IMG/VR virus record: IMGVR_UViG_3300017761_001785
Location: 1-31,352 of that record
Length of the DNA stretch: 31,352 bases
Direction: 5' to 3' (one strand)
Origin: a virus
Lineage: Duplodnaviria > Caudoviricetes
Below, piece after piece: positions 2,278 through 29,478 of the stretch. The notes below the pieces were generated by a model, which had not been told where the DNA came from, made no database searches, and saw only the letters and a list, made by a program, of their open reading frames with translations. Numbering within the stretch: the first letter of the stretch is position 1; each line of letters opens with the position of its first letter. The position numbers and the translations under genes were made by a program.

Positions 2278-2296
2278 TTAGCTTTTTCGGGATTCC

Positions 2297-2734
2297 TTAT
2301 TGTTTTTCGGTTGTTAGGATGCCACTATTGTCCACCTTAATCAAGAAGATATTGCTTCCAGATAGATAGGAAATCCATTGGCGGGTTGTAGATGATCCAC
2401 TTGGCGTTACTGTAAGTATACCACTGTCATCTACAGTCAAAGAAAATACACTAGAATTGGGAGATTTGACAAGCACAGAAGCAACCCCGCTCCCAGACCC
2501 AACAAGTTCTGTAGTAACAATACCATCGCTGTCTACTGTAAGCTTCCAAATCCCGCCTCCAGAAGCTACCAAATATGTGGGCGCATAGAAATTATTGATA
2601 ATAGCCGCTACCTGATACCTCCACGGCCAGTTAATATAGGTGGCAACTAATGCGGGATCTGCCTCGTCTCCCCTTGCTGCTGCGGCAATCCTTCCAATTG
2701 CCTCTTTTTCGCCCCACTTTAGTTCATAGCTCAT
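2297..2734 (-). CDS. Virion/fibre-associated protein with three beta repeats
   Basis: 145 aa; repeats WKLTVDSDGIVTTE, FSLTVDDSGILTVT, FLIKVDNSGILTTE; ATGA overlap with the upstream gene. Confidence 0.65.
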   Translation of the reverse strand: MSYELKWGEKEAIGRIAAAARGDEADPALVATYINWPWRYQVAAIINNFYAPTYLVASGGGIWKLTVDSDGIVTTELVGSGSGVASVLVKSPNSSVFSLTVDDSGILTVTPSGSSTTRQWISYLSGSNIFLIKVDNSGILTTEKQ

Positions 2735-3078
2735 GGCATGGCCTCCATTACGGGAATCAACCCAGCCAGTTCCTCTGGTGTCAACTCAGCTACCCCATCA
2801 ATTTCTCCAGCGTCAAATGCGGCAGCAAGGTCTGACTGCCATAGACAGGTATAGGCTAAACGGCCATCGGTGAGGGTTTGGCCGACAATGTTACCACGTT
2901 CCATGGACGCCGCATAAATGCTGGTCTTTTCAGCGTCATTCCAAAAAGCCCCAATGGTGCGTGTGTTGCCACTTCCATAGGACAACTCCTCACCGTATTG
3001 GGCATTGAGCGCAGGAAACAAGGTCGCCACGGCTTCGGGAGCTACGGCCATAGTGCGTTGGGTTAGTTCGTAGCTCAT
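2731..3078 (-). CDS. Hypothetical protein, 115 aa (start revised to MSYELTQR)
   Basis: ATG at 3078 overlaps the stop of the 406-aa gene (ATGA); the longer ORF-track version overlaps that gene by >100 nt. Confidence 0.75.
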   Translation of the reverse strand: MSYELTQRTMAVAPEAVATLFPALNAQYGEELSYGSGNTRTIGAFWNDAEKTSIYAASMERGNIVGQTLTDGRLAYTCLWQSDLAAAFDAGEIDGVAELTPEELAGLIPVMEAMP

Positions 3079-4295
3079 GGTAGTCCGAGGCCCGTGCCGA
3101 GGGTTGTTTTGTAGAGATCGTAAAGCTCTAAATTTTGAGATGCGTTTAGACTTGTCGAAATAACGTGTGCAAACGAAATTGTACCTAACCAAAAGAAAGC
3201 GTTAGTAGCGTAAGTTCCTATCAATAATGGATCAGAATTCATTACTACTGAACTCGTCATGGTTCCGACGGAAAGGCCCGAATTATATCCTGTAACGCTT
3301 GTCCCGCTTTTATTATAAACAGGAAATCTAAGCGAATTGATTGGCAATGAATATGTAATGCCAGTAATTTCATCTGCCATTTCTGATCCAGCCCCACCCT
3401 GCCCAATCCAGACAGGACGAGTTTGCAGCGCAATTTTGGTCCCTCCAGTTGAGGGTCTGCTAAGAGAAACTCCAAAGTTAAAATTTGAATAACCCGATTT
3501 TTCGGCAAATGCGACAGTGATGTAATCATCAGATCCGTCAAAAACCATCCCATCCGCCCCGCGTGTTGGGCCGTTGACCATTGTGCCATTGAACGTTCCC
3601 AGACCGCCCAGCGAAAACACGGTGTCGCCGCTTGCGGCATTCTGCGAAGACCTTAACGGCCAACAGACCATGGAATTCCAGAGACCAAGAGCCTTTACTC
3701 CAAGAACAAAGTCATTGATTGCCACAATGTCTGTGGCACCACTGGTTGCAACAAAGCTGCTTGCATTGGCGTCATAGGTCGAGGCTGATGCCGTGTTGCT
3801 ATAGCCAGTAAAGAACCCACCACTAGATCCCCTGATGCGATACTGGTAGTTGCTGGCAATATTTAGTCCGGTGTTGGTTGCCGTGGTGGCCCCGATTGCC
3901 GTGGTTCCGATAACCTGAAAGGCCGCTCCATCCACAGACCTTTCTACAGAATAGGCAACAGATGCCCCATTGGTAACCCAGTCTAGCTTTATTGAAGATG
4001 AGGTTAGCGGGGTCAGCGTTAAACCGCTGGGGGCAGCGGGGGCACTGCGATTGAATATGATTGCCCCGTAGATGTCGCTCCATGCATAGCTCTTGGGGAG
4101 TTCTATGTATTCTTGTTCTGTGCGGGGTCCTCCGAGTTCTACCGCGATCTTGGCATAGAGGTAACGTTCTGGAAGTGTGCAGAAGTCATCGATGGACCCC
4201 GAACCCGACTGCTCAACAAGCCACTTGGAAAGTAGTTGTCGCCTTGGCAAATCTGCCGAGGACGCAAAAACAGCATCTAATACTGGAAGGGCCAT
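3075..4295 (-). CDS. Virion decoration/adhesin-like protein with an FN3 domain and a LamG/concanavalin-like domain
   Basis: PAAPSGLTLT..SSIKLDW..YSVERS..TGL..YQYRIR is an FN3 pattern; C-terminal FDGSDDYI..PLLIG..GTIS..LNASQ is LamG-like; located downstream of the capsid gene. Confidence 0.75.
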   Translation of the reverse strand: MALPVLDAVFASSADLPRRQLLSKWLVEQSGSGSIDDFCTLPERYLYAKIAVELGGPRTEQEYIELPKSYAWSDIYGAIIFNRSAPAAPSGLTLTPLTSSSIKLDWVTNGASVAYSVERSVDGAAFQVIGTTAIGATTATNTGLNIASNYQYRIRGSSGGFFTGYSNTASASTYDANASSFVATSGATDIVAINDFVLGVKALGLWNSMVCWPLRSSQNAASGDTVFSLGGLGTFNGTMVNGPTRGADGMVFDGSDDYITVAFAEKSGYSNFNFGVSLSRPSTGGTKIALQTRPVWIGQGGAGSEMADEITGITYSLPINSLRFPVYNKSGTSVTGYNSGLSVGTMTSSVVMNSDPLLIGTYATNAFFWLGTISFAHVISTSLNASQNLELYDLYKTTLGTGLGLP

Positions 4296-4316
4296 AGTCT
4301 ATGGAACCCTTACAGG

Positions 4317-4556
4317 TTAGGCCATGCCCATAATTCGTTCACCCATGCCAGCCATAGGGCCAGCAGCTTCCATCTCCTCGTCTTCCATTTCTGCGACAGC
4401 TTCGTCTTCGGTGTCTTCCATCGGGATCTCGACACCAGCAAGCATGGTGGGGACAAGGGAGGTTCCCTCAACGCGAAAAGTAACCAACTCTTCAAAAGTT
4501 TGGCCGTCTTCAACGTCTTCGGGGAGGGTGTAATTTTCGGGGATTGAGAGCTTCAT
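4317..4556 (-). CDS. Small acidic hypothetical protein
   Basis: 79 aa, E/D/M rich; co-oriented with the structural operon and fills the gap. Confidence 0.7.
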   Translation of the reverse strand: MKLSIPENYTLPEDVEDGQTFEELVTFRVEGTSLVPTMLAGVEIPMEDTEDEAVAEMEDEEMEAAGPMAGMGERIMGMA

Positions 4557-4625
4557 AATGTAGTACTTTGTTTAAATTCTATAACACGCTTACAATACTA
4601 TGGTTTCGGGATTTTGTCACGAACT

Positions 4626-4660
4626 AAAAAAAGAGGGGAGAGACTTTCGCCCCTCCCCCC
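4626..4660 (-). terminator. Rho-independent terminator after the major capsid gene
   Basis: Minus strand GGGGGGAGGGGC-GAAA-GTCTCTCCCCTC-TTTTTTT: 12-bp stem (3 G-U), GNRA loop, U7 tail. Confidence 0.9.
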
Positions 4661-4684
4661 TTAGTGAATTATACTATCCTAATC

Positions 4685-5947
4685 TCAGCTAAGATAGCCG
4701 TAGCCAGAGCCAGAAGGACAAGCGACCAGATCGGCGGCAAGGTTGCAGCGCAGGTGCAGGATGTAGTAGCCCCAAGTAGGGACAATCTGCTTCACCGCAC
4801 AGGCCATCTTAGCCCTCCAGTAACCGCTGTTTTTGTCAGGGTTACAGTTCCGGTCATACTCGTTGATCCACTTGAAGTCGCCACGATAGTTCTGAGCATC
4901 ATAGATCAGTTTGCCGACCTTGACGTTCGTGCTAGGGACGAGCCACTCCATGGCCTTCGGATGGAAGATAACCGTCGAGCTATACTTCGCATTCTTGTAG
5001 GCGGGGTTGATGATCGCCTTGACGCCACCCGTACCGGGACCTGTAGAGGCCGTGGTGCTATAGGGGGCAACTTCGACGAATCCACCGGACCCGTTGTCAT
5101 TGAAGCGTTTCGGGAATGGACGGCTGTGGAACACGAATCCGCCGTATGCCTTTTTGGGCAACAGCGAGGAACCGTTGGCTCCCAGCAGATCATTCACGCG
5201 ATCACTCCAGCGGATATCCTGACGGACATCTTCCTGAAGTTTGATCAGGTTCTCAATGGTGGCGCGTTCTGCGAATACGTTGAACACAGGGGCACCGTCA
5301 TCGGTAACCGCATCGCCGTCATCTCCAGCATTCTCCTGATAGAGGTTGTCATGGATTTGACGAAGAACTCCCGGTGTCAAAACACTCGTAGGAGCGGGGG
5401 TTCCGGCGATAGTGGCGAGGCCCGTGGTACCATTGAAGGTAACGGTTCCGTTGGTATCAATTCCCGGTTCCACACTCAACTTGGTCGAATGCGCGAGATA
5501 ATCGTCATCGTAGCGTTTGATCCACTCGACGTTGACGTTGTCGGCCAAGATCTTGATGTAGTTGTTAACATCGTCAATCGGGAAGGTCGCGGTGCGAACA
5601 TCTTCCAAACAGATGAACTTGGACTCAACCGCCTGCTGACGGAGGCTGAAGGTCTTGGTGTCGAAGGCATAGCCAACGGTTTTGACAGGAGCCAAGCAGG
5701 CATTGTCTTGACCGGACTCACCAGTGACGCCGATATCTTCCCATCCGGTACCCGTAGCGATAGAACGCTGGGCGATGATGTTGGTGATCGTTTTGCCCAT
5801 GTTGTCGGGGAATGCCGACTGGGAAACAAAACGGAGATAAGGATCTTTGTAGAGACCCAAACGATAGGTGCCGAGGGCTACGCGCCCTGACTCCCGCACG
5901 AAGTTATCATTGATAGCTTCGCAAGTAGTAGCAGTCTGTGCTGACAT
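4685..5947 (-). CDS. Major capsid protein
   Basis: 420 aa; gene order portal-scaffold-this gene-terminator; features compatible with an HK97 fold (FPDNMGKTI E-loop-like segment, YGGFVF, VIFHPKA). Confidence 0.8.
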   Translation of the reverse strand: MSAQTATTCEAINDNFVRESGRVALGTYRLGLYKDPYLRFVSQSAFPDNMGKTITNIIAQRSIATGTGWEDIGVTGESGQDNACLAPVKTVGYAFDTKTFSLRQQAVESKFICLEDVRTATFPIDDVNNYIKILADNVNVEWIKRYDDDYLAHSTKLSVEPGIDTNGTVTFNGTTGLATIAGTPAPTSVLTPGVLRQIHDNLYQENAGDDGDAVTDDGAPVFNVFAERATIENLIKLQEDVRQDIRWSDRVNDLLGANGSSLLPKKAYGGFVFHSRPFPKRFNDNGSGGFVEVAPYSTTASTGPGTGGVKAIINPAYKNAKYSSTVIFHPKAMEWLVPSTNVKVGKLIYDAQNYRGDFKWINEYDRNCNPDKNSGYWRAKMACAVKQIVPTWGYYILHLRCNLAADLVACPSGSGYGYLS

Positions 5948-6121
5948 GATTGTTTATTTCTTTCTAATTAAGGTTGAGTTTATGTTTCGAGATTTTCCCG
6001 CAACAAAGTTTGTTTTTCCTCACGCCGCAGATGAGGAGTAGCAACGGCGATTCTAATTTAGAAAGCACTAAGCCAGCTAACAAGGCGTCTGCGACCAACC
6101 CAGACTAAAGTCTTGATTGGG

Positions 6122-6151
6122 AGACTACCCTAAAAACTAATTAATTGTCAA
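6122..6151 (-). promoter_or_regulatory. Sigma70-type promoter for the capsid gene
   Basis: TTGACA-N18-TAGTCT in the scaffold-capsid gap. Confidence 0.55.
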
Positions 6152-6160
6152 TAGCTAAAT

Positions 6161-7459
6161 TTAGCGTCTACCCATAATAGATGCGCCAAAGTTAGTTATA
6201 CTCTTATCGCTAACATCCTCGTCATCGCTTGCCTCTTCTGAGGTGCTTCCCAATGAGGGGGTGGCTCCGACGAATGACTTAACCTGTGATTCTAGTTCGG
6301 CAATCTTTTTGTCTCGGGATTCGACCTGACTCTTTAGCTGGGTACTATAGTGGTTGATCGCGCTCTCAAGGAATGGAACCACCGCTGCCCGAGACAGAAT
6401 GGCACTACGGTCTTCTACACTCAGTCGATCCAGATTGGTCTCTGCTGCAACCTTCTTGGCCCCACGAATCTGACCATTCCACTCATCGTTGCCGTCAATT
6501 TCCTGAAGGAAATTGTAGCGGTCTTCAAGGTTGGTCCAAGTTTTGGCCGTGAAAGCCTTTTGGAGTCGCAGATCATTCTCAATAAACTCCTGCTCCGATT
6601 GGGCCTTACGGGCATTTTCGGCCTCAGAAAGGGACTCCGCCTCACGCTGGAACCGCTCATGGTATTGGGCCAACTCATGGTACTTGTCGGCCATTTTGAC
6701 AATGGACATCTGCTCCATCCGCTTGAAGTCTCCGGTTAAGTCTTCTAGGGAATCGGTGCGCTTGCGGACATCCGGCTCGGTAATGGCCTGCCACAGCTTG
6801 GAAAAGTCAGAGTCATTGGCCTCTGCGATTGACTTGAGGTCTCCCTGCAAGCTCATCACGGGCTTCTTGATGGTCTCAATGTATTCGGGGGAACGCTCAA
6901 AGTTGGCGGTCTTTAGCTCGCGGTTAAGCTCTGCCATGCGGGTCTTGTAGTTCTCAAGCTCTTCTTGGAGGGTCTTGACGGTCTCTCCCTCGTACTTGCC
7001 AACCTGCTCCTTGGTCGCTTCTAGTTCGGCCTTGATTCGGTCCCGCTCTTCACGGGCCTTTTTCATTTCGCCCTTGATCTCTTTCCAAGACTGAATTCCT
7101 TTTTCGGAGTCATCGCCTTCGGGCCTGTCCGCTACTGGTTTATCCTGAAAGTGGGGGTTGATTGGAAGGTCGCTATCTTTGCTGGAATCCTCTGATTTAG
7201 ATTCGGCCTTCTCTGTCGAAGACTTCTTCGTGATCTCCTCTACTGCCTTGGAAGCTTCCTCCTTGGTTGCCTTGCTCTTCTTTTCGACCTTGGGCTCTGG
7301 GGACTTTTCTTTCGGGGTTTCGGGTGCTGCCTCTTTTACTTCAGAAGTTTCTGTGGGAGCAACCTCTGCCACTGGAACAGCTTCAGGGGCTGGGGTATTA
7401 AAGATTGTTCCAGCGAAGTCTGCGTCACCCGTAAGGGCACTGTTAAGGATTTCGGACAT
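6161..7459 (-). CDS. Capsid scaffolding protein (putative)
   Basis: 432 aa; disordered E/K/P N-terminus and long coiled coils; directly upstream of the capsid gene. Confidence 0.7.
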   Translation of the reverse strand: MSEILNSALTGDADFAGTIFNTPAPEAVPVAEVAPTETSEVKEAAPETPKEKSPEPKVEKKSKATKEEASKAVEEITKKSSTEKAESKSEDSSKDSDLPINPHFQDKPVADRPEGDDSEKGIQSWKEIKGEMKKAREERDRIKAELEATKEQVGKYEGETVKTLQEELENYKTRMAELNRELKTANFERSPEYIETIKKPVMSLQGDLKSIAEANDSDFSKLWQAITEPDVRKRTDSLEDLTGDFKRMEQMSIVKMADKYHELAQYHERFQREAESLSEAENARKAQSEQEFIENDLRLQKAFTAKTWTNLEDRYNFLQEIDGNDEWNGQIRGAKKVAAETNLDRLSVEDRSAILSRAAVVPFLESAINHYSTQLKSQVESRDKKIAELESQVKSFVGATPSLGSTSEEASDDEDVSDKSITNFGASIMGRR

Positions 7460-7476
7460 AGTATATAGTTATTTTA

Positions 7477-7761
7477 TTATTGTTCTTTGTTTATGTAAGA
7501 GAAAGCTTCTGGGATGTCCACCTTGGGTCTTGTTTCAAACTTACCCTTACCAAGAGTTTCTATAAGGTCAACCACTTCTTGGCTTCCCTCATAGAATCCC
7601 GCGCTCTTGATAAATACCGGAGACAAATCAAACCCCTGTGCCACAGGACCAGCACTACGCCGTGGGCGTACCTTTTTTGCGATAAACTTGAGGCCCTTTA
7701 CCATAGTCGGGTCTTCCCAAGTTTGTGCCCAAAAACGGGCATCTTGATCTGTCCAATTCAT
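7477..7761 (-). CDS. Small head-module protein between portal and scaffold
   Basis: 94 aa; this position is typical of podovirus head modules. Confidence 0.7.
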   Translation of the reverse strand: MNWTDQDARFWAQTWEDPTMVKGLKFIAKKVRPRRSAGPVAQGFDLSPVFIKSAGFYEGSQEVVDLIETLGKGKFETRPKVDIPEAFSYINKEQ

Positions 7762-7770
7762 TAGAAATTC

Positions 7771-7798
7771 AACCTATAAGGTTATAACAACTAGTCAA
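7771..7798 (-). promoter_or_regulatory. Possible sigma70-type promoter
   Basis: TTGACT-N16-TAGGTT, 9 nt before the ATG at 7761. Confidence 0.35.
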
Positions 7799-7807
7799 CA
7801 AGTAAAA

Positions 7808-10090
7808 TTACAGTCCCATCGCCATAGGGGGTCGCCCTGCTGGCTTTGCTGTTTTCTCCAGAATAGAACTGCGAGTCTTTAGATCGTTGAGGGCCATTTG
7901 CTGACGGATCGTCTCCATCTTCTGTTGATGGGTCTCTTGGTTCATCATGCGTTTCTCCTGCATTTCTGCCAACTTGAGTTGAGCCTTTTGCATTTCCATT
8001 TCCATTTTGGGATCGATCTGCGGCTGTCCACCTTGTTGCGGGGCACCCATCGCGGCTTCCTGCATTTGGCTTTGTTCGGCCATCGCCCTGTTGATCACCT
8101 GTTGCTCAAGCTCGTCAACATAAGCCGTAAGGTTCTGAAGCTGGCGGCGGAGTTCGCGGATCTCCTGCTGCCTAAAGCTGTTGTTGGAGAACATGACCAG
8201 ATGCTCAGTCACATGGTCTGAGGCGGGACGCAAGATTGCCATGGCCTGCTCGTCTGCCACTTGCTGCTGGCGATGGGCCTCAATGATTTCCGCAATCATT
8301 GGGATGTGGGCTTCGATATGCACCGCATGGTTCTGGCTATCGTGGACCAACTGCTGGATGCCCTGACGGAGGTTGCCGTTCTCAAGGTTGGCGATGTCGA
8401 AGTCAACGATCTTTCGGGGTTCGCCTTCGGGGACAAACATGTTGACCTTCTGGTAGCCGACTCCCGGTATGCCAGCAACCACTGCGCGAAGGACGTTCTC
8501 CTTGCCTTTCTCGTCCATCAAAGAATATAGCTCCATGAGTTGCTTGGAGGCCATCTCGGTCATTACCGGACTACCATCACCCATGGCCCTCATGGCGGTA
8601 ACCTTGAGGAATTTACGCATGCGCTCAATGCTTACCCCTCGACGCGCACAGCGGCGGCGGAACTCAAGGGCCAAGGCCCCGCCCTTATCTGCTGCCGTCA
8701 GGTTGGGGTTAACCGCCCTACGGTACTGTTCGGTGAGCAGCTTGTTGTAAGGGGTGTAGAAAAGTTCCAGTGCTGCGGCGTTTAGGGTGGATTCTTGACG
8801 GGCTTGCTGAACCACTTCCGTAGCAGACCTTGCTTGGTTGTCTGGGGTGGTTTGCCGTGAGCGGTAGCTTCCAGTGTTGTTCTGGAGGGTTTGGCTCATC
8901 AAATTGTAAACCGGAAGACCTTGGGTCGCGATAGACGGAGGCTGAAGTTGGATCGGGGTCAGGCCACTTTGGATGAAGGTGTAGGGTCCGACCTCAATGT
9001 ATTGGAAGTCTTGGATGGCTTCGGCGTCTCCCTGAAGCTGAATCAGGCCAGAGGTAACGGCAGCTTGGGCTGCTTGGCAAAGGATTCGATTACTGACCTG
9101 AATCGGGTTGTAGATCTTCTGCTTCAGGCCCCGAATCGTGTGGAAGGTTCCCTGTCCCACCCCGTAGGTAAAGATGACAAAGCACTGGTTGACGTTGTTG
9201 TACTTGCTATAACGCTCATAGAGAAAGTCTGAGCTATCCTTGGAGGCGATGAGTTGGGTGAACTTGCCGTCAAACTCGCGGTTGTAGCCGTAGATCAATT
9301 GAGCCCTGTGGTAGGCACTCTCTCCCTGATAGAGGTCGTTCTCCTTGATCTCGCGCTCAAAGTCTTCCCAGTGGTGGGTGTAGTTCTTCCATTGGTCGGA
9401 CTTGGTGGAAGCCTTCCAGATAGCCTGCTTTACGCTGTTGATGTTCCATCCTAGCTTCTTGGATATTTCGGGATTTCGGATGTAGTTGTAAAGCTCGCTA
9501 ACACTCATGTTGCGGGTGACCACAGCTACTTCAATGGCATTGTCGGATACCTTGGTATCACGGGCTACCTTAAAATCTTTGAGTCCGCAAGGCTCCCAGA
9601 ACACACTCCGCTCATCAGGCCACATGGCAATCCCAACCCCATCTCCCACAAATTCCCGAGAGAGAAGCTGCATGTTGTAGGGGAAGTCACTCCACTCCTT
9701 GAGCATCCAGTCAAACTCCTCAGAGATGACTTCGGAGTCCTCACTGTACTCCCCCTCGTAAGAATCCAAGATGACGTTGGCCACACGGGGAACGCCGTTC
9801 TGAAGTTCGATGTAGGGAGCAAGAGCGGCCTCCATAATGGCACTGGCTTCTCCAAAGTTGCTATTGACCACATGGGTCAGTCCCTTGTTTTTTAGTTCTT
9901 CGGAATCGTAGGGGGCCTCCCCGTTGACTAGAGCTTGCGCCTTAGACCGCAACCAAGAAGCTTCCTCGTCTTGCTCAATGTACTTGTCGCTTATGGCAAC
10001 CAAGTTGTCGGAAGATTTAATACGCTTTTTGGGCGCACCCCCTTTTTCTGGTAGGTTCTCTAGTTCTGCGTTGCCTTCGTTTGAGTACAT
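7808..10090 (-). CDS. Portal protein
   Basis: 760 aa; GDGVGI motif, RSATEV motif typical of P22/T7-type portals, long Q/M/E-rich helical C-terminus; upstream of scaffold and capsid. Confidence 0.85.
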   Translation of the reverse strand: MYSNEGNAELENLPEKGGAPKKRIKSSDNLVAISDKYIEQDEEASWLRSKAQALVNGEAPYDSEELKNKGLTHVVNSNFGEASAIMEAALAPYIELQNGVPRVANVILDSYEGEYSEDSEVISEEFDWMLKEWSDFPYNMQLLSREFVGDGVGIAMWPDERSVFWEPCGLKDFKVARDTKVSDNAIEVAVVTRNMSVSELYNYIRNPEISKKLGWNINSVKQAIWKASTKSDQWKNYTHHWEDFEREIKENDLYQGESAYHRAQLIYGYNREFDGKFTQLIASKDSSDFLYERYSKYNNVNQCFVIFTYGVGQGTFHTIRGLKQKIYNPIQVSNRILCQAAQAAVTSGLIQLQGDAEAIQDFQYIEVGPYTFIQSGLTPIQLQPPSIATQGLPVYNLMSQTLQNNTGSYRSRQTTPDNQARSATEVVQQARQESTLNAAALELFYTPYNKLLTEQYRRAVNPNLTAADKGGALALEFRRRCARRGVSIERMRKFLKVTAMRAMGDGSPVMTEMASKQLMELYSLMDEKGKENVLRAVVAGIPGVGYQKVNMFVPEGEPRKIVDFDIANLENGNLRQGIQQLVHDSQNHAVHIEAHIPMIAEIIEAHRQQQVADEQAMAILRPASDHVTEHLVMFSNNSFRQQEIRELRRQLQNLTAYVDELEQQVINRAMAEQSQMQEAAMGAPQQGGQPQIDPKMEMEMQKAQLKLAEMQEKRMMNQETHQQKMETIRQQMALNDLKTRSSILEKTAKPAGRPPMAMGL

Positions 10091-10178
10091 ATTTCGGGAT
10101 TATTGTGGCAGGGTTACGATTACGTCGATTCTTTTAACCGGATTCTCGTAAACATCTATGATTTCTGTAGCAGCCATA

Positions 10179-20639: not shown

Positions 20640-21091
20640 TTATGGGTTTATGGCGATTGTGTTACTAGGCGGGGCTGGGGCCAGTCGCCCCGCCGTTATC
20701 AGCGGCTCTATTGGCTTGAACCCCGAAACGCCGCTCCATTGGATTAATAATTCCTATGGGCTAGATCCTGCCGAATGACTACACCTCGCCCCCGCAGGGG
20801 CAAAGGCATAGTCAAATTTGGATTCTCATTCCTCTTGGGTGAGTCCTCCGCTTTATTCCACAGACTGCGATCTAGGCTCCGAAGCCGCTCTTAGACCTTC
20901 AAACAACCGCAATCAACCTCCGAGGGTATTATCCCTCGCGCTTACCAGAGTTCCTCTGGATTCCCATGCCGCAATGTGTTCAGGCGATGGGACGGATGGC
21001 TGGCTGCGAGTGCGGCGGTTTTACCCTTGCATACCTCGTCACAGGTTCTAGTGGCGTATGTCTCGTCCACTTTACGACTGTCCTTCCAGAC
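20640..21091 (-). ncRNA. Large multi-stem non-coding RNA candidate (~450 nt)
   Basis: At least nine helices found by eye; tandem G-U pairs and a C-UGCG-G tetraloop work only on the minus strand; has its own promoter; no credible ORF. Confidence 0.6.
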
Positions 21092-21097
21092 AATCGC

Positions 21098-21126
21098 AGG
21101 CTACGATACGTTCAAAATTAAGTCAA
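21098..21126 (-). promoter_or_regulatory. Sigma70-type promoter for the large RNA
   Basis: TTGACT-N17-TAGCCT; overlapping near-ECF element TTGAAC-N18-GTCTGG. Confidence 0.6.
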
Positions 21127-21207
21127 GAAAAGAAAGAGGGTGCGGCTCCGAAGCGAAGTCTGGAAGACAGCCGCAACAAAATGGAACCGCACCCAGATAC
21201 AAGGATC
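21125..21207 (-). ncRNA. Small RNA candidate (~80 nt) ending in a stem and U-rich tail
   Basis: 12-bp stem GGGTGCGGTTCC/GGAGCCGCACCC (21138-21194) followed by TCTTTCTTTTCTT; its loop is complementary to 21074-21097. Confidence 0.55.
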
Positions 21208-21261: not shown

Positions 21262-21531
21262 GTGGATAAAGAATCTTACAGAGCCTACTTGAAAACTCCT
21301 TATTGGAAGGACGTAAGCCGACTAGTCAAGAAACGCTACGGCTGGAGGTGCGGGGTGTGTAATAGCCCCCTAGAACTCCAAGCCCACCACCGCACCTACG
21401 AGCATAAGGGGGACGAGCTAAACCACCTTGATGACCTGATCTGCCTGTGCAAGGTCTGCCACAAACTTTTCCACAGGGAGCAGAAAAAGAAAGCGCGACC
21501 CCCAAGGAGACCGCGCCAAAAGAAGGGTTGA
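21262..21531 (+). CDS. HNH endonuclease
   Basis: Y..YL.TPYW..., RCGVC, AHHRTY, DLICLCKVCH..FH; GTG start. Confidence 0.88.
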   Translation: MDKESYRAYLKTPYWKDVSRLVKKRYGWRCGVCNSPLELQAHHRTYEHKGDELNHLDDLICLCKVCHKLFHREQKKKARPPRRPRQKKG

Positions 21532-21566: not shown

Positions 21567-21575
21567 ACACATCCT

Positions 21576-21887
21576 ATGATTGATACAACTATCCTGCCAT
21601 CCGAAGTTCAACAAAATCCCGAAATCACCATTGGTGAACTAGCCGACAAGCACAATGCCAACTATCCTGCCATGGCGGCAGCATTGCGAAAGAGCGGGAT
21701 TCGGGCCAAACGGAAAAAAACCACCAAGAGGCGTTTGTCCAATGGGAGCAGATCCTTTAAGATTCTTGGCTACCTCATGGCCAATCCCGAAATAAACCTC
21801 ACCGTTATTGCCGAGCAATTCAATTGCACTAGGGAGTATGTGAGCCAGATCGACGCCACTGCCCGTGAAGAAGGGATCATTAAATGA
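21576..21887 (+). CDS. Double-HTH DNA-binding protein (start revised to MIDTT)
   Basis: 103 aa; NPEITIGELADKH and NPEINLTVIAEQFNCTREYVSQI HTH-like repeats joined by a basic linker. Confidence 0.7.
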   Translation: MIDTTILPSEVQQNPEITIGELADKHNANYPAMAAALRKSGIRAKRKKTTKRRLSNGSRSFKILGYLMANPEINLTVIAEQFNCTREYVSQIDATAREEGIIK

Positions 21888-22180: not shown

Positions 22181-22183
22181 CCA

Positions 22184-22570: not shown

Positions 22571-22709
22571 TGCTGATCTTAAAATAAAATACGATGATAC
22601 GGGATTCTTGATGAGTTTCCCCGAAGACACCGTTGGCTATCAAGACAACCCCATCCGCAGATTGTTTGAACAGATTAAAGAAATTGATGTCGAAGATGGT
22701 GAGGAGTAG
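22551..22709 (+). CDS. Small acidic protein, 52 aa (not in ORF track)
   Basis: MEQWEFDADLKIKY...EDGEE; fills the gap. Confidence 0.55.
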   Translation: MEQWEFDADLKIKYDDTGFLMSFPEDTVGYQDNPIRRLFEQIKEIDVEDGEE

Positions 22710-22718
22710 CCTCACACA

Positions 22719-23291
22719 ATGGATCAAGCCACCATCAATTTTCTCGGGAGAGCCATTCTGCGCTACCGTCAGTTTAAGCTGACCTTTGTTCCGCAGAAGT
22801 ATTTGATTACGGGCAAGGCCACCTCTGTAGGATGGGCCAATGATTGCGAACTACGGATTGCCACCAAACGCCCTCCCTCTACTTGGGTGGATGTGTTTGT
22901 CCATGAGACATGCCACCTCGACCAACAATTGCAGAGACCCACTTGGCACGAACACAAGGAGGAGGCCCTTAGAAAGCTCGACCATTGGTTAGAGGGCAAG
23001 CGGGTAGACCATATCGAAAACCACATCCGCAGCGTCATTGAACTGGAGTGGGATTGTGAACGAAGGAGCGTGAGGAAAATTGCTCGCAACAAGTTGCCAG
23101 TAAACCTGAAGACCTACGCCCAAATGGCCAATGCCTATATACTAGGATACCACTGGACCCTAAAGAATCGCAAGTGGTGTAAGAAGACCTATGAAACAAC
23201 CTACATCTGGACAAGGATGCCCGAAAAAATCATCCCCCTTAAAACAGCACTGTTCCCCCCAGACAAACTTATCAAGCTATTCTATGAGTAA
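22719..23291 (+). CDS. HExxH zincin-like metallopeptidase-fold protein
   Basis: VFVHETCHLDQ with downstream ELEWDCE. Confidence 0.6.
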   Translation: MDQATINFLGRAILRYRQFKLTFVPQKYLITGKATSVGWANDCELRIATKRPPSTWVDVFVHETCHLDQQLQRPTWHEHKEEALRKLDHWLEGKRVDHIENHIRSVIELEWDCERRSVRKIARNKLPVNLKTYAQMANAYILGYHWTLKNRKWCKKTYETTYIWTRMPEKIIPLKTALFPPDKLIKLFYE

Positions 23292-23541
23292 TACCACCTG
23301 TTCTTCATGCATGGAACTTGCCGCCATCCACGAATGCCTTAAAGATTACGCTATTTATGATGGGGAACCCCCGCTTTTGTCCCTGTCGATGCTTATATCC
23401 GAAGTAAAGATGTGGAGGTCAAAGGACGAGTACGATAAGAAGTTGAAGGTTGTCATGGGTAACGCTATTCTTAAACAAATAAACGGAGACGATGAAGATG
23501 ATGGAAATGAAGTGGCAGGCCAGATTTTTGGCCTTAACTAA
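23284..23541 (+). CDS. Hypothetical protein (start MSNTTC)
   Basis: 85 aa; CxxC near the N-terminus; overlaps the upstream stop. Confidence 0.55.
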   Translation: MSNTTCSSCMELAAIHECLKDYAIYDGEPPLLSLSMLISEVKMWRSKDEYDKKLKVVMGNAILKQINGDDEDDGNEVAGQIFGLN

Positions 23542-23935
23542 AGAAATTGCAAGCTGGAGTAAGGATCTCGGGACCAAGGTCGGTGCTGTTATTGTCCGAC
23601 CAGACCGCACCATTTGCTCTGTGGGATTCAACGGGTTCCCCCGTGGGATAGAGGACAACCCCTATGCTATCGCAAATCGCGATACCAAGCTGCTTCGCAC
23701 CATCCACGCCGAACTCAACGCCATACTCTCGGCCAAGGAGCCACTCAATGGATATTCGATCTTTGTCTGGCCCTTCCAGCCATGTAGCCAGTGTGCGGCG
23801 GCTATTATCCAGAGCGGGATCAAGGATGTCTACTGTCCCTTTCTTTGCCACTCATCCAATGACCGCTGGAGCGAGTCGTTTAAGGCTGCGCTGCAAATGC
23901 TTGATGAGGCGGATGTTAGAGTTATTTACTCTTGA
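23492..23935 (+). CDS. dCMP deaminase
   Basis: SKD..TKVGAVI, GFNGFP, HAE.NA, PC..C zinc motifs; the true start may be a few codons downstream. Confidence 0.93.
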   Translation: MKMMEMKWQARFLALTKEIASWSKDLGTKVGAVIVRPDRTICSVGFNGFPRGIEDNPYAIANRDTKLLRTIHAELNAILSAKEPLNGYSIFVWPFQPCSQCAAAIIQSGIKDVYCPFLCHSSNDRWSESFKAALQMLDEADVRVIYS

Positions 23936-23937
23936 CA

Positions 23938-23966
23938 TTGAACGAATCGGTGGGTTACTTGTCTAT
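23938..23966 (+). promoter_or_regulatory. ECF/sigmaE-type promoter, copy 4
   Basis: TTGAAC-N17-GTCTAT, 7 nt to the ATG at 23974. Confidence 0.75.
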
Positions 23967-23973
23967 ATTAACC

Positions 23974-24186
23974 ATGAGCAGCAATGGAATGACCAAGGTC
24001 CTTGAGGGTATCTCAAATTGGAAGGAGTACTCCCGCTTTGAGAACCAAGAAGAAGGATACATCACCCAAGAAAGGGTTGGTGAGGGTTTGACTTTCTTTC
24101 TTTGGAGGGTTGACAAGGAACCTGTGCCGCTTGACTTTACCTACATCGATGGAACAACCTTTGTCCGGTTCCGGTCCATCCACTAA
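23974..24186 (+). CDS. Hypothetical protein (start MSSNG)
   Basis: 70 aa directly after the promoter. Confidence 0.6.
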   Translation: MSSNGMTKVLEGISNWKEYSRFENQEEGYITQERVGEGLTFFLWRVDKEPVPLDFTYIDGTTFVRFRSIH

Positions 24187-24190
24187 TTTT

Positions 24191-24424
24191 ATGAGCGAAC
24201 AAGAACAACCTAACGAAACAAAAGTTAACGAAGCGATGACGGAACGGGTAAACAAAGCCCTTGAAGCATCTGACTACACCTTTCTCATGGGCTCCAGCGA
24301 CCATGTAGTAATGATTAGCGCGGGAGAAGAAAACAACAAGGTTGACATCTTGATGACCCTTGAGTCCATGGAAGAGGCTGTGGCCACACTTCGCTCCCAA
24401 GCAGACGAAGAGAAACCCCAATGA
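24191..24424 (+). CDS. Acidic hypothetical protein (start MSEQE)
   Basis: 77 aa; tiles the operon. Confidence 0.65.
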   Translation: MSEQEQPNETKVNEAMTERVNKALEASDYTFLMGSSDHVVMISAGEENNKVDILMTLESMEEAVATLRSQADEEKPQ

Positions 24425-24732
24425 AGCCCTTTGTTTACGATGCAAGGGTTGGCGAGGTTGGGCAAGTCGCCTTCTACAAAGACCTTAAAACATCCACCTA
24501 CTGTTTCTACTTCTACAATGGGAAAGAATACACCCCTCTCTACTTGTCTGAAGAAGCAGCTTACTATGTGTGGATGTTTATCGGGTACGAGCATCCAGAA
24601 GCCACTACCACCCCAAGGGTAGCCATGGCGTTGGGTGCTTTAAAAAAGAATTTTGCTTCGGCTAAGAAGGCTGGTCGAAGTAAACAAACCAAGCGGCCTT
24701 CATTAACAAAAAAGAAAGCGAAAAGTAAATGA
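24421..24732 (+). CDS. Hypothetical protein with basic tail
   Basis: 103 aa; ATGA overlaps at both ends. Confidence 0.7.
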   Translation: MKPFVYDARVGEVGQVAFYKDLKTSTYCFYFYNGKEYTPLYLSEEAAYYVWMFIGYEHPEATTTPRVAMALGALKKNFASAKKAGRSKQTKRPSLTKKKAKSK

Positions 24733-24959
24733 GCATCAACGAAAAGAAAGACAACAGCGGAGCGGCGTTTGTCCGCGAATCAGACAACCCCAAGGCCCCG
24801 AAGTACAGTGGTCCCGCCACTATCGGGGGTAAGGACTACGAAGTCTCAATCTGGCAGCAGACTAGCCAGAAGGGGGTTAAGTATCTTAGCCTGAAGTTCG
24901 GGGCACCCTATGTCCCGAAGGAAAAGAAACAAGAGGTCAACGAAGACCCCGAATGGTAA
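24729..24959 (+). CDS. DUF736-like putative ssDNA-binding protein
   Basis: DNSGAAF..PKYSG..IGG..Y.VSIW..G.KYLSL with an acidic-aromatic tail (EDPEW). Confidence 0.6.
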   Translation: MSINEKKDNSGAAFVRESDNPKAPKYSGPATIGGKDYEVSIWQQTSQKGVKYLSLKFGAPYVPKEKKQEVNEDPEW

Positions 24960-24965
24960 AATAAG

Positions 24966-25112
24966 TTGGGCTTCATCGGCATAGCCATTTGTACGGTTTG
25001 CTATATTGCAACCTCAGTTGATTTTTACATCAAGGGGAATATCCCCATGGCTATCGCCTTTGGAGGCTACTCAATAGCTAACATCGGATTTTTAATAATC
25101 GCAAGACAATGA
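24966..25112 (+). CDS. Small membrane protein, 48 aa (TTG start, not in ORF track)
   Basis: GFIGIAICTVCYIATSVDFYIKGNIPMAIAFGGYSIANIGFLII; two hydrophobic segments. Confidence 0.6.
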   Translation: MGFIGIAICTVCYIATSVDFYIKGNIPMAIAFGGYSIANIGFLIIARQ

Positions 25113-25204
25113 AACTTTGCACCTACGTTATGGCTGTTGGATTCTCCCTAATCATTTGGACATTAGTCACCATCGGTATGGTGGTTATGCTACAGAAGTG
25201 GTAG
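25109..25204 (+). CDS. Single-TM microprotein, 31 aa
   Basis: MKLCTYVMAVGFSLIIWTLVTIGMVVMLQKW; ATGA overlap. Confidence 0.6.
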   Translation: MKLCTYVMAVGFSLIIWTLVTIGMVVMLQKW

Positions 25205-25287
25205 ACAATCTTACGGCCTGCATATTCTGGCTAATCATTCTGGTGGTTTCTCTGAAGTTCCTTAAAGACATATTTGGACCACGATGA
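25198..25287 (+). CDS. Single-TM microprotein, 29 aa (GTG start)
   Basis: VDNLTACIFWLIILVVSLKFLKDIFGPR; its stop overlaps the next ATG. Confidence 0.5.
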   Translation: MVDNLTACIFWLIILVVSLKFLKDIFGPR

Positions 25288-25460
25288 AGAATAAGCTAGA
25301 GAACTGGATAGCCAACCGCCATGAAGACGAGCTTGCTGTAATGAACCTGCTCCAAGAATGGGGAGTCGTTAGCGACACCATCCTCTGGGCCAAGGACTGC
25401 GGCAACGACACCAAGGCCATGGTATGGATGGCTTGCAACACACACCTACTGCCTAAATGA
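25284..25460 (+). CDS. Hypothetical protein, 58 aa
   Basis: MKNKLENWIA..MNLLQEWGVVSD..; ATGA overlaps at both ends. Confidence 0.65.
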   Translation: MKNKLENWIANRHEDELAVMNLLQEWGVVSDTILWAKDCGNDTKAMVWMACNTHLLPK

Positions 25461-25573
25461 TTATTGTAGAAACATTTCTTAATTTGGTGGGCTACGGAGT
25501 AGTGGCTAACATTGGCTTTGCCTTTGTCTTTTGTTTCTCTCGCTTTAGGAAGCTCAATCGTTCACTCAAATAA
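25457..25573 (+). CDS. Single-TM microprotein, 38 aa
   Basis: MIIVETFLNLVGYGVVANIGFAFVFCFSRFRKLNRSLK; hydrophobic segment then basic tail. Confidence 0.6.
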   Translation: MIIVETFLNLVGYGVVANIGFAFVFCFSRFRKLNRSLK

Positions 25574-25576
25574 AGT

Positions 25577-25605
25577 TTGAACGAAAGCGCGAACTAAGGG
25601 TCTAT
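25577..25605 (+). promoter_or_regulatory. ECF/sigmaE-type promoter, copy 5
   Basis: TTGAAC-N17-GTCTAT, 6 nt to the ATG at 25612. Confidence 0.75.
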
Positions 25606-25611
25606 ACTTCT

Positions 25612-26085
25612 ATGAGCCTAGACATCGCCACTCCCAAGGGGCAGGTAAGCTTGCAAGACGAACAAATAGTGGCGCGTTGGTTCAATCGTAAAGAGGACCA
25701 CTTCTACCTCCAAACCCCGAAAGATAGTCCCGCCAAGGTGGATGCTATTCTCACAAGGGGAGAGGAGATCATTGGTCTTGCCGAAACCAAGTGTCGTTAC
25801 AACATAACCCTCCAAGACTTCCGCCACAAGTTCCACAACGAGTGGTTGGTTACTTGGGAGAAGTTGGAGTCGGGGTTGAAAATGGCAGAGCAACTCTGCG
25901 TTCCTCTCTATGGATTCCTGTATCTGGTAGATGATGATGTATTGTTAATAGCAAACCTAAGTAAGGCGGAGATACGCCGAGAGTTCACCGAAACCCAGAA
26001 GACGATCAATGGGGGAAAGATTGTCAGGGAGAATGGATTCATCCCCATGAAGGGGGCACTAGTAAAGCACACCATCAGTAAATAA
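25612..26085 (+). CDS. PD-(D/E)xK nuclease-fold protein
   Basis: E...AKVDAIL...GLAETKCR (D...ExK). Confidence 0.65.
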   Translation: MSLDIATPKGQVSLQDEQIVARWFNRKEDHFYLQTPKDSPAKVDAILTRGEEIIGLAETKCRYNITLQDFRHKFHNEWLVTWEKLESGLKMAEQLCVPLYGFLYLVDDDVLLIANLSKAEIRREFTETQKTINGGKIVRENGFIPMKGALVKHTISK

Positions 26086-26090
26086 ATTTT

Positions 26091-26216
26091 ATGGCAGGCA
26101 AAGGAAGCAAACCAAGGAAAGTAAATGGCCCGAAGTATCGAGACAACTTTGACAACATCAAATGGGGCAAAGGCCCGAAACCACACAATGAAAACAATAA
26201 AAAGACCCAAGCTTGA
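26091..26216 (+). CDS. Small basic phage protein, 41 aa (not in ORF track)
   Basis: MAGKGSKPRKVNGPKYRDNFDNIKW; GKGSKPR..N(F/W)D.I motif recalled from many phages. Confidence 0.65.
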   Translation: MAGKGSKPRKVNGPKYRDNFDNIKWGKGPKPHNENNKKTQA

Positions 26217-26781
26217 AAACTTAGATAACTACAAATGCGATAAACATTGCGACAGGCTTGAATATCCCTGCTCCCATTCTAAGGGCCGAGCAAAAGCTTA
26301 CCGTAATAACGTTGCTGTAAATCAAGCAACCGAGCTAAAAGCCATAGATCAAATAGAAGAGACGAGTTATGGTGTTTGGCTGGTGTGCAATAAGTGGTAT
26401 TTTCACCCAAACTCTAAACTTGCAAGACCAAAAGGACAACGCTCACGATATCAGAAATTCAAGAACTTCACCACATTCTGGAAGTTTATCCACGATAAGG
26501 GCAAAAATCCCCAATGGAAGATTAACAGGGAATTTAATCTGACCGAAGAAGATAAGCCAATTAATCGCAAAAAGCTGTTAACAGATGAAGATGTAATGCC
26601 ATTTGGTAAATACAGAGGAAAACAACTTAAACACGTTCCATACAGTTATTTTATGTTTTTGTGGAAAATGTTTGGCTTTTCCAATTTCAAAAAATATCGT
26701 GGGAAGGCTGGATATGTGGCAGAATACATAGAACGCCTTATAAAAAATAAACAACCTTGCACAAACCCCGAATCAATATGA
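26188..26781 (+). CDS. Basic protein with a C-terminal DUF3820-like motif (start revised to MKTIKRP)
   Basis: VMPFGKYRGKQLKHVPYSY motif; visibly AT-rich. Confidence 0.65.
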   Translation: MKTIKRPKLENLDNYKCDKHCDRLEYPCSHSKGRAKAYRNNVAVNQATELKAIDQIEETSYGVWLVCNKWYFHPNSKLARPKGQRSRYQKFKNFTTFWKFIHDKGKNPQWKINREFNLTEEDKPINRKKLLTDEDVMPFGKYRGKQLKHVPYSYFMFLWKMFGFSNFKKYRGKAGYVAEYIERLIKNKQPCTNPESI

Positions 26782-26957
26782 ACCTAAAAAAACTACTAAG
26801 TAAGGGCCACCTCATTCCGATCTACAACCCCGTGGATGGCAACTTGTGCATCGTGGGGTATCAACGCAAGCCCACCAGCAGAAAAGCCTCCCAGAGACCC
26901 TTTCTGCTCCCGCAACCCATCATCTTGGGCCCCTTGACCCCAAACCCCGAAACCTAA
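26778..26957 (+). CDS. Hypothetical protein (start MNLKK)
   Basis: 59 aa; ATGA overlap upstream, TAATG overlap downstream. Confidence 0.6.
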   Translation: MNLKKLLSKGHLIPIYNPVDGNLCIVGYQRKPTSRKASQRPFLLPQPIILGPLTPNPET

Positions 26958-27229
26958 TGAAACCCACAGGCCACGAACTAATAGACCAAGAGATAGGCAA
27001 ACAACTAGGAGAAGACGAAACAGTACTTCTAGCAGACGGGCTAGAGTCGGCATTTCTAGGTATAGGCCGACAGTTCTCCCATGCGGTAGCAATTTACTCG
27101 TACAAGAAGACGATTAAGAACCTGATGCGTCAGGGTATGGACAGGGAAGAGGCAATTGAATATTTTGACTTTAACATAGCAGGAGCCTTTGTCGGAGACC
27201 AAACCCCAGTATTCCTAGCAGACGAATAA
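26957..27229 (+). CDS. Conserved small phage protein (start MKPTG)
   Basis: 90 aa; ADG...A.LG...AIY...GM.REEA.EYFDFN..GA.VG..TPVF pattern recalled from aquatic phages. Confidence 0.75.
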   Translation: MKPTGHELIDQEIGKQLGEDETVLLADGLESAFLGIGRQFSHAVAIYSYKKTIKNLMRQGMDREEAIEYFDFNIAGAFVGDQTPVFLADE

Positions 27230-27316
27230 GCAACGTGTCGATAAAACCCCGAAATATATACACATTAGTAGATACATGTATACGGCGTAGACATATCTGT
27301 GGTATAAGGATCTCTT

Positions 27317-28795
27317 ATGGCGGGACGATTATCAATGGCAACGGAGAGACTGGCTTCGGCAATGAGGCCGCTCCCAACTTCTTCCTTTGGCTATCCAGTC
27401 AGAGAACCAGTCCCATCTGAACAAGCCTTCTTTGCCCTCAACCCCAATGTGGGAGGCTATGCCGCAGAGGACGGGGCTGTTGTCCTGAACGAGGGGGCAA
27501 GATATAAAGACAGATACCTGTCCAACAGAGAGCTTGGTAGTGTGGCGCAGAACGAGGCTTCCAGACTTTACATGCGGGATAGGGCTATTGTTCCAGATTT
27601 TAGCTTGACCAAGGATCAAGAGCTAGAGTTTCAAGGAACGGCCTACGGATCAAACCCCGAAGCATTGAAGCAGTCCATAGCGGCCAGAATCATTACGGGA
27701 GACCAGTCAGCGGGTGATACAACCCCAGAGCAGAAAAGCTTCTCACAGGGCCTCCTAAAGCAAATGCAAGCCAATGGCGAACCAGTCGCGACCAACCCCG
27801 AACCCAAACGGGGAATTGTGGCAAAAGCAGCAAGTAAGCTAGAAGAGGTTCTAGGAGTGCCCCTGCCTTGGGAACTCGGTCTCGTCACATCTGTAGGGTA
27901 TCAGATGGCCGCAGGAGAGGGGCCTCTAGTAGAACGGGCTCGCAAGGGTGGGGCTCAGTTCTTGGGCCGCTACGCCACCAATATGGCCAATCCTGCGCTG
28001 GACTTCCAGTTCCCCACGCTTGGAGAAAACTATGAGGTAAGCGACATCCTTCAGGATAGTGCCTCTTGGATGAGGCCAGAGTATTATGCCGATAAACGAA
28101 CAATCCCCATAGATGCAATGGTCAGGGGTAACGAGGTGCTTTCTAGAGATCTATTTGAACTCCCATCTCGCATACCAGTAGAAGAGACAGATCTTGTAAA
28201 AACAGGACCCAAACAATACACAGTTAAAGAGGGTAGCCCCCTAAAACCCGAAGCAAATGAGACGGGGCTTTATTACAACTATTTGTTAGGAAAGTACAAC
28301 GTCACCCAAAATCCCGAAACCAAAGCCCTGCAATACAGTGATACATGGGATCTGTCTTCTCCCTTGGGACCAGCCAAGGTAAAGAGCGTCAATGGGGACG
28401 AAGACTACGCCCCAGACTACGCACAGGAAAATAGCCCCCTGTCTTACATGGCTAGAAAGCTTGTTAACCCCTTTCTCCGTCCAGCCACCGTAAGTGGTAG
28501 CATATCCAACCCCGAACCCGAATTTAAGGGCTTCCCATCCTCCCATCCCTTTGTAAGTAATAAGGACGGAAGTAAAAGTAATGTCAAATTAGCCACAGTG
28601 GGTCTAGGAGACAAAACCTTCGTAATCCCAACAATGGTGGGGGGTAAGGATCTCTCTATCCAACAAGCCGTAAAAACAGCCAAGGACTACGGCCTTTCCA
28701 ACTACCCATCATTTACCAATCCCCAAGACGCCGATAGCTGGTCTAAAAAGTACCACGGCTCCATAGACGAAAAGGGTAGGCTCAAGTCTAAGTAA
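27317..28795 (+). CDS. Multi-domain protein, possible internal virion/ejection protein
   Basis: 492 aa; N-domain NPNVGGYAAEDG..LN..NEASRL..ARIITGD and C-domain NKDGS.S..VIPTM..A..WS..H recalled from large podovirus internal proteins. Confidence 0.45.
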   Translation: MAGRLSMATERLASAMRPLPTSSFGYPVREPVPSEQAFFALNPNVGGYAAEDGAVVLNEGARYKDRYLSNRELGSVAQNEASRLYMRDRAIVPDFSLTKDQELEFQGTAYGSNPEALKQSIAARIITGDQSAGDTTPEQKSFSQGLLKQMQANGEPVATNPEPKRGIVAKAASKLEEVLGVPLPWELGLVTSVGYQMAAGEGPLVERARKGGAQFLGRYATNMANPALDFQFPTLGENYEVSDILQDSASWMRPEYYADKRTIPIDAMVRGNEVLSRDLFELPSRIPVEETDLVKTGPKQYTVKEGSPLKPEANETGLYYNYLLGKYNVTQNPETKALQYSDTWDLSSPLGPAKVKSVNGDEDYAPDYAQENSPLSYMARKLVNPFLRPATVSGSISNPEPEFKGFPSSHPFVSNKDGSKSNVKLATVGLGDKTFVIPTMVGGKDLSIQQAVKTAKDYGLSNYPSFTNPQDADSWSKKYHGSIDEKGRLKSK

Positions 28796-29478
28796 ACCGC
28801 GCCCAAGGGCATAGCTTTTGCACAATAGTTCAAGCGTAGTTATGTAAAGTCGGGGTTTTGTGGTGGATAACGGCTTATCATAGAGTAGCGAAAACTCCCT
28901 ACATTTTGTGACACAAAGAGCAAGGTAATGTGTAGCGTAGAGTGGGACAGAGGGAACTAGTACCTTGTGTAAACCCCGCTATACATAAACCCCCATTGTG
29001 TATACCGAAGAGGACATTGCTATACACAGGGCTGATAATGCGTTCTCTCGTTTACTTTTTGTAGATATTTTTTGAGATGGGGTGTTCCACAGGATGAAGG
29101 TATGTCCGCCAGCCGGAAGGTGGGAGGGGGACCGGTGGGGTGGGTCCAGAGCGTGTGTCGCTGCGCCTGTCGTGCCGTGGTTGCGCTCCGTCCCGAGTGG
29201 CTATGACCCGACCCCGCATATAAATCATCTCGTCCCGTAGGGCCATCGTACACTATGGCATCTTGAGCCTCTGTGCCTGTATAAAAAGGGTTGACATCGA
29301 ACCCGCCCCTTCTGACCTGTCCACCTGCTATCGCCTCACCACCGGAAAAATGGCGCAAAGGAACCCCGAAATAATCGATCTTGACCTTGCCACCTGTCGC
29401 CTTTGTTTGCCGGATCAATAGTGTAACAGCGGAAAAATAAACTTGCGTCTGGTGGTATTCTGGCCCCGTCTGGCCGCA

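Follow-up and report, generated by a model that had tools for sequence, protein, structure and literature searches.

A dispersed, asymmetric DNA word in one clade of tailed phages is favoured at silent sites and biased outward from the early/late junction

Introduction

The dispersed words described so far in phages are of three sorts: host words taken over by the phage (Chi), words linked to transcription or translation (stoperators and start-associated sequences, SAS) and words confined to one strand (nick sites). Here we analyse the 10-mer AAYCCCGAAA in IMG/VR record IMGVR_UViG_3300017761_001785, 31,352 nt of a tailed phage (Caudoviricetes), the whole of which we call the window; it is a 31-kb piece of a ~70-kb genome whose complete relatives span 68-73 kb. 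Chi, both in bacteria and in the lambdoid phages rich in it, is described as short, asymmetric, over-represented, dispersed in and between genes and biased away from the origin (PMC3384302, PMC3784561); the host's Chi reaches a median observed/expected ratio (O/E) of 3.1 in recombinase-less lambdoid phages, according to the second of these accounts. FtsK-orienting polar sequences (KOPS), SpoIIIE recognition sequences (SRS) and other architecture-imparting sequences (AIMS) are polar words as well, and the skew of KOPS and AIMS rises toward the terminus, to 90% or more near dif. Among clade-specific phage repeats, Cluster A stoperators follow transcription and the 17-bp repeats of Cluster O form inverted pairs, as reported in PMC4351075, nearly all Cluster K SAS are described as lying 3-7 bp before starts in one orientation (PMC3203893), and the nick sites of tf and T5 are placed on one strand (PMC3517423). 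The literature searched, most subscription journals being outside its coverage, holds no description of AAYCCCGAAA in phages.

The word in the window

The window holds 16 exact copies, eight on the minus strand left of 17431 and eight on the plus strand right of 20719 (Table 1); an initial annotation, made by eye from the letters alone, had placed every one of them correctly. Chance yields far fewer: 100 dinucleotide shuffles gave a mean of 0.20 and a maximum of 2, and the Markov expectation is 0.23 at order 3, 2.69 at order 5 and 6.72 at order 6. Ten copies lie wholly within genes, every one in the sense orientation and together using three frames (NPE five times, TPK three times, PRK/SRK twice), and six are intergenic. 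Synonymous-codon shuffling on corrected gene calls (n = 1000) gives 1.17 genic copies, with a maximum of 5. In genes, the excess claimed by the annotation survives the codon-preserving control that it had itself proposed.

In the window, positions 1-9 of the word hardly vary and position 10 is less constrained; we write AAYCCCGAA(A) where both lengths are meant. The word has a density of 510/Mb in the window, and relatives range over 140-280/Mb. There are 17 one-mismatch copies, four of which run in reverse (12129, 13724, 14038 and 16560), and four exact copies end 1-15 nt upstream of a start codon (2285, 10092, 17422 and 26943), both as the annotation had remarked. The window shows no terminal repeat, no longer repeat unit around the word and no clear fixed inverted-pair spacing of copies, and the evenness of the gaps between copies is not significant (p 0.14).

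Clade restriction and selection at silent sites

Exact copies number 10-14 in each of eight relatives (48-73 kb) and 0, 0, 1 and 0 in four basal relatives. A quick portal tree with 62 rows places all motif-positives within one clade of 55 rows (SH-like approximate likelihood ratio test, 95), which also includes L059 (0 copies in 10 kb) and a few short loci of low density; the window's own lineage is the richest, with L444 carrying 8 copies in 8 kb.

Two lines of sequence comparison, silent codon choice and site conservation, point to selection on the DNA word. NPE is encoded with CCC GAA in 9/9 cases in the window and in 38 of 45 across five positive genomes, where about 8 would be expected, and in 0/4 cases in the motif-free genome G004. 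Comparison with eight close relatives finds the word intact in 21 of 26 site-relative pairs, where 11.8 would be expected; these pairs share ancestry and are not independent. Farther out, relatives hold 103 distinct sites, and the conservation of window sites spans 1/65 to 31/38 aligned relatives. Retention nearby and turnover over longer distances fit selection for number, with placement wherever protein constraint allows, and we infer that copy number matters more than position. By a gene caller that misses short genes, 46 of 124 distinct sites lie outside called genes. Within 20 nt of called starts we find 12 of 114 copies versus 16 of 522 composition-matched words, a 3.4-fold enrichment, and about 90% lie elsewhere.

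G004 (L093-L096) over-represents a related word, AAGCCCGC, with 22 copies versus 2.9 expected and a weak polarity of 13:9; this is a possible variant signal.

Polarity and the early/late junction

The annotation had placed a polarity flip between 17431 and 20719 and had inferred a Chi/KOPS-like or priming signal, or a protein- or RNA-binding site. The flip is real, but it coincides with the coding-strand switch, and the synonymous null is itself strongly sense-biased (1.13 sense versus 0.03 antisense in the window, or 97% sense; about 86% in relatives), so the window alone cannot show replication-type polarity. Coding largely accounts for the window's perfect polarity. In the relatives the word is in excess in either orientation, antisense as much as sense, which excludes a purely RNA-level element and gives no support to the RNA-binding site that the annotation had entertained.

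Projected on the circle of G002, the copies to either side of the early/late junction point away from it and orientations are mixed about opposite, with the opposite polarity switch ~half a genome from the junction. The sense:antisense ratio of the 9-mer is 48:13 in genes that point away from the junction, compared with 20:28 in junction-facing genes (odds ratio 5.0, p 1.3e-4), a contrast that 0/250 control words reach; for the 10-mer the odds ratio is 3.8, reached by 4/250. Because raw ratios are confounded by the composition of one giant gene, the test was redone per distinct orthologous peptide site. Given the protein sequence, O/E is 5.5 and 17.4 for copies pointing away, the higher value belonging to antisense copies in junction-facing genes, versus 2.9 and 5.3 for copies pointing towards; three control words lacking CCGAA gave 0.5-1.9 sense and 2.1-4.5 antisense, and near variants that keep the core were higher. 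An outward positional bias of ~2.5-3-fold remains after coding constraints are removed. Transcription polarity as the whole explanation was dropped, since an antisense excess was found in the giant gene.

At the junction itself the window carries a predicted structured element of ~400 nt. It is ~80-90% conserved in several relatives, with indels, and 10 of its 92 predicted pairs show two-sided change; Rfam has no family that matches it. Replication-initiator-like helix-turn-helix (HTH) genes occupy its place in G002 and G003. The polarity switch maps to where these genomes carry them, and we infer that the early/late junction is a bidirectional origin. The element is possibly an RNA-based origin.

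Candidate readers

A reader of the word is probably encoded by the phage, and sequence comparison suggests two candidates as the best leads, a small HNH nuclease and an orphan basic protein. The word is present at every one of the 34 loci with the HNH gene, a co-occurrence confounded by clade, and basal relatives yielded no clear HNH orthologue. Some positives lack the gene: G461, with 9 copies, gives no match to the HNH alignment, and L111 has no HNH at the locus. The orphan is found at 40 loci, all with at least one nine-mer, again confounded by clade, and its own gene often contains copies of the word. Relatives have a longer form of the protein, of 85 aa. Its hidden Markov model has no match in 19 motif-poor stretches, among which only G004 clearly covers the neighbourhood. 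The predicted fold is a helix with a three-stranded sheet and a basic loop (predicted local distance difference test score, pLDDT, 81), with no significant match in BFVD or the PDB.

HTH proteins, which the annotation had suggested for binding assays, fare less well. The second recognition helix of the tandem HTH protein is identical in motif-free G456 and the first varies among positives, so that neither co-varies with the word and we do not favour this protein as the reader. Primase specificity is reported to be set by beta4 residues of the zinc domain (PMC2978363); some positives share these residues with motif-free G004, and the positives differ from one another in them, which counts against the priming signal also proposed at the outset. 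L460 is a mosaic, with G004-type DnaB, TerS, HTH and dCMP deaminase genes on a positive-clade backbone. It keeps six nine-mers, all outward, which is possibly inertia after a recent exchange.

A 59-aa histone-like gene was also considered as a reader and rejected, as 8 of its 26 loci, from more distant phages, hold 0-1 copies, with 1-4 nine-mers in three complete ones; the gene thus occurs in motif-free phages too. It lies outside the window, at L090:11031-11210 (G003) and 26 loci, and encodes a two-helix protein (Atlas lead 0.87, with PF00808 in 14% of its Atlas cluster; model pLDDT 70) for which the PDB gave no match and a fold search came back empty.

Table 1. Copies of the word and associated features in the window (positions from its first letter)
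Feature	Position	Strand	Context
AATCCCGAAA	2285..2294	-	intergenic, 7 nt upstream of fibre-gene start
AATCCCGAAA	4604..4613	-	intergenic, 3' of capsid gene
AACCCCGAAA	7310..7319	-	within scaffold-like gene, TPK frame
AACCCCGAAA	8412..8421	-	within probable portal gene, PRK frame; exact in 1/65 distinct aligned relatives
AATCCCGAAA	9466..9475	-	within probable portal gene, NPE frame; exact in 6/64 distinct aligned relatives
AATCCCGAAA	10092..10101	-	1 nt upstream of probable portal ATG
AACCCCGAAA	13623..13632	-	within terL, TPK frame; exact in 31/38 distinct aligned relatives
AATCCCGAAA	17422..17431	-	end of 323-aa gene, 15 nt upstream of dnaB
AACCCCGAAA	20719..20728	+	directly upstream of conserved structured element
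Predicted structured non-coding element, conserved	20735..21135	+ (as listed; strand not shown)	at polarity switch, indel-bearing
Small HNH nuclease gene	21262..21531	+	candidate reader
Tandem HTH gene	21576..21887	+	holds copies 21615 and 21783, both NPEI; not favoured as reader
AATCCCGAAA	21615..21624	+	in tandem HTH gene, NPE
AATCCCGAAA	21783..21792	+	in tandem HTH gene, NPE
AACCCCGAAA	25713..25722	+	in PD-(D/E)XK-like gene, TPK
Orphan basic protein gene	26778..26957	+	motif-positive clade only; candidate reader
AACCCCGAAA	26943..26952	+	encodes C-terminal NPET, 4 nt upstream of next ATG
AACCCCGAAA	27245..27254	+	intergenic
AATCCCGAAA	28310..28319	+	in 492-aa gene, NPE
AACCCCGAAA	29362..29371	+	intergenic

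The phage and its host

Genes of the window include terL, a terS-like gene, DnaB, HNH, a RusA-like gene, dCMP deaminase and an SSB-like gene; the capsid call is an Atlas feature match, and the portal call follows gene order and the label given in the initial annotation. Cultured phages gave no match to the capsid or portal and one weak match to terL. Sequencing runs holding the best matches carry freshwater labels, and one RNA run that was examined held a diverged relative only. The host phylum is likely Verrucomicrobiota. Of five named cellular matches to DnaB, three are from Verrucomicrobia, and distant relatives of the portal (28%) and terL (32%) adjoin an argC homologue in a Verrucomicrobiota genome, G596 (L412, L414; G596:C78), where they are a possible prophage remnant. 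A host search with the portal found no genome contig, and one with terL in the order of G007 found weak matches only.

Several features of these genomes stand apart from the word. Restriction-like sites are very strongly avoided in the window and in G001-G005 and G456-G463, and most relatives lack CCGG; in the window's lineage nearly all remaining CCGG sites read ACCGGA/TCCGGT or GCCGGA/TCCGGC, and CCAGG is missing, which suggests, from these site counts, a different set of host restriction enzymes. The region of a 218-aa gene upstream of the orphan gene (26125-26781) looks like a variable insertion, as a contig of run X1 omits 26170-26771. A giant 2728-aa protein (L085:4922-13108, G002) appears to carry a methyltransferase-like insert at about residues 1300-1470, in few relatives only. 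No RNA polymerase or sigma family was found in this protein or among 77 proteins of G002 and G004. A tRNA-Met(CAT) adjoins the tandem HTH gene in some relatives (L081:13067-13142, L086:14812-14887, L126:5969-6043); the window has none.

Discussion

What is AAYCCCGAA(A) for? The account we prefer, at a probability of about 0.35, is that the word is a fork- or end-oriented, Chi/AIMS-like site for a phage protein. We place it in none of the families tested. A single phage clade keeps the word in excess on both strands, at silent positions as well as in non-coding DNA; a phage-encoded protein would recognise it and, much as with Chi and other architecture-imparting sequences, would work on forks or broken ends that travel outward from the putative junction origin. 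The outcome might be the promotion of recombination or repair, or fork loading. Of the initial proposal, a Chi/KOPS-like signal or a binding site, this retains a selected protein site at the DNA level with a bias tied to the junction; we found no support for the RNA site, for a Chi or KOPS shared with the host (in the Verrucomicrobiota sampled), for binding by the HTH protein or for the primase.

Chi is a close likeness, sharing with the word every property listed at the outset, and the differences are that the word has 9-10 specific letters, shows a far larger excess and is not enriched in sampled candidate hosts. Orientation away from the origin regardless of gene strand, as in Chi, holds for the word in part, to the extent of the ~2.5-3-fold bias around our putative origin. 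Like KOPS, SRS and AIMS, the word diverges from one point, with a skew of ~three in four after coding control; unlike KOPS, it belongs to a phage and is most polar close to the divergence, with mixed orientations around the opposite point, where KOPS skew instead rises to the terminus.

Several observations weigh against this account. The origin position is putative, and contig ends, which belong to assembled contigs and do not cluster, give no genome termini. Across four long relatives, gene strand fits about 43 of 48 exact copies in a simple tally, more than the 35 of 48 that agree with the junction model. Most of the positional signal is due to the one giant gene, whose composition is unusual and in which CTCGGC and other words have far larger raw odds ratios. 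Copies in the 'towards' orientation are also about 2-fold enriched over controls. GC skew at four-fold sites follows gene strand everywhere (-0.20 to -0.33) and gives no independent sign of replichores. NPE is encoded as CCC GAA in 3/3 cases in three other motif-poor loci. Finally, the word does not vary in step with primase, DnaB, TerS or HTH.

The strongest alternative, which we regard as tentative, is an orientation-independent site for a phage regulator or DNA-organising protein of the stoperator or Cluster O type, with the polarity a by-product of codon and strand composition. Stoperators and Cluster O repeats are, like the word, clade-specific and dispersed in phages, and stoperators are asymmetric. 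Enrichment of both orientations where the null predicts mostly sense copies would fit such a site, as would the excess near starts, the many sites outside called genes and the co-occurrence of the orphan with the word. However, antisense copies concentrate in junction-facing genes, where their O/E of 17.4 is the opposite of a word oriented with transcription; most sites turn over rather than being held at promoters; the HTH helices behave as described above; and Cluster O repeats, unlike the word, are inverted pairs. Our comparisons showed no connection of the word with a repressor.

Could the phage instead be mimicking a Chi or KOPS of its host, so as to recruit AddAB/RecBCD or FtsK? The geometry agrees, the 3' end pointing away from the origin, and the Chi-rich lambdoid phages are a precedent (PMC3784561), but the host side makes this unlikely. 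Among 401 Verrucomicrobiota genomes the top density of the word is 44/Mb versus 510/Mb in the window, in a sample that may not include the true host. For the top family (up to ~57/Mb, that of G343), one genome was read, G413, and there non-specific NPE codons in sense account for 17 of 21 copies; the second-highest is explained by 8-bp tandem repeats, and the family of G596, which holds the distant prophage relative, reaches at most 10/Mb. The search of host chromosomes that the annotation had called for thus found no shared Chi or KOPS, and no Chi-like excess of the word, in the Verrucomicrobiota sampled (401 + 46 + 36 genomes, some shared). A double-motif scan of 5/64 parts of the collection returned mostly tandem repeats, in many phyla. 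Tandem 7-8-bp repeats, for example (AAATCCCG)n, contain the same 10-mer in Planctomycetota, Bacteroidota and Verrucomicrobiota (L253, L266, L294, L333, L343; G366), and we found no link between them and the dispersed phage copies.

A phage nickase site, cut by the HNH protein as in T5, tf/LUZ24 and phiKMV phages, seems quite improbable. Such sites are, like the word, asymmetric, 9-10 bp long with one degenerate base and present in 10-16 copies, the tf site TACTRTGMC being reported at 14 (PMC3517423), and the HNH gene keeps company with the word throughout the loci that bear it. Known nick sites occupy one strand only, whereas the word lies on both and switches at the junction (8 + 8 in the window, and on both strands in complete relatives). 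G461 and L111, described above, also speak against it, and the co-occurrence is confounded by clade.

Restriction-site avoidance or mutation bias might have funnelled codons into CCC GAA, which we hold to be very unlikely. CCGG, CCAGG, CCCGAG and 6-bp palindromes are among many purged sites, limiting the choice of Pro-Glu codon pairs, and on either strand the core CCCGAA is in about 2-fold excess. Yet basal relatives shun similar sites and use CCA GAA/GAG (CCC GAA at 4/61 xPE in G004), and the excess outlasts an order-5 Markov model, spans positions 1-9, includes intergenic copies and involves sites that are retained.

An extended priming site for the phage DnaG, with a CCC core on the lagging-strand template, is highly doubtful. 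The 'away' orientation corresponds to that template, copies in the window are spaced at about 2 kb, the DnaG of Aquifex is described as favouring CCC (PMC2532735) and T7 primase as reading the 3' flank (PMC12839067); but nine fixed letters are long for a primase, the beta4 residues do not track the word, and mosaic L460 retains it with a G004-type DnaB. Least probable of all is a translation-start signal like Cluster K SAS, since the several copies 1-4 nt upstream of ATG/GTG, often across a stop/start overlap, are a minority, about 90% lying elsewhere, and the word has no Shine-Dalgarno core, occurs in both orientations and is strongly enriched in antisense.

A more specific form of the Chi/AIMS-like account is that the word is a clade-private code, with a phage reader (the orphan or the HNH protein) that would steer recombination or the restart of forks to phage DNA, in the outward direction from an origin defined by RNA. 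We consider this speculative and rather doubtful as it stands. If true, the word would be both a self-recognition and an architecture signal that the host chromosome lacks. A word with silent-site selection on both strands, a bias outward from a probable origin, absence from sister lineages and no excess found in sampled hosts would be a phage-private genome-architecture signal, and the motif-free sisters together with two small candidate readers would make it testable in vitro without culturing the host.

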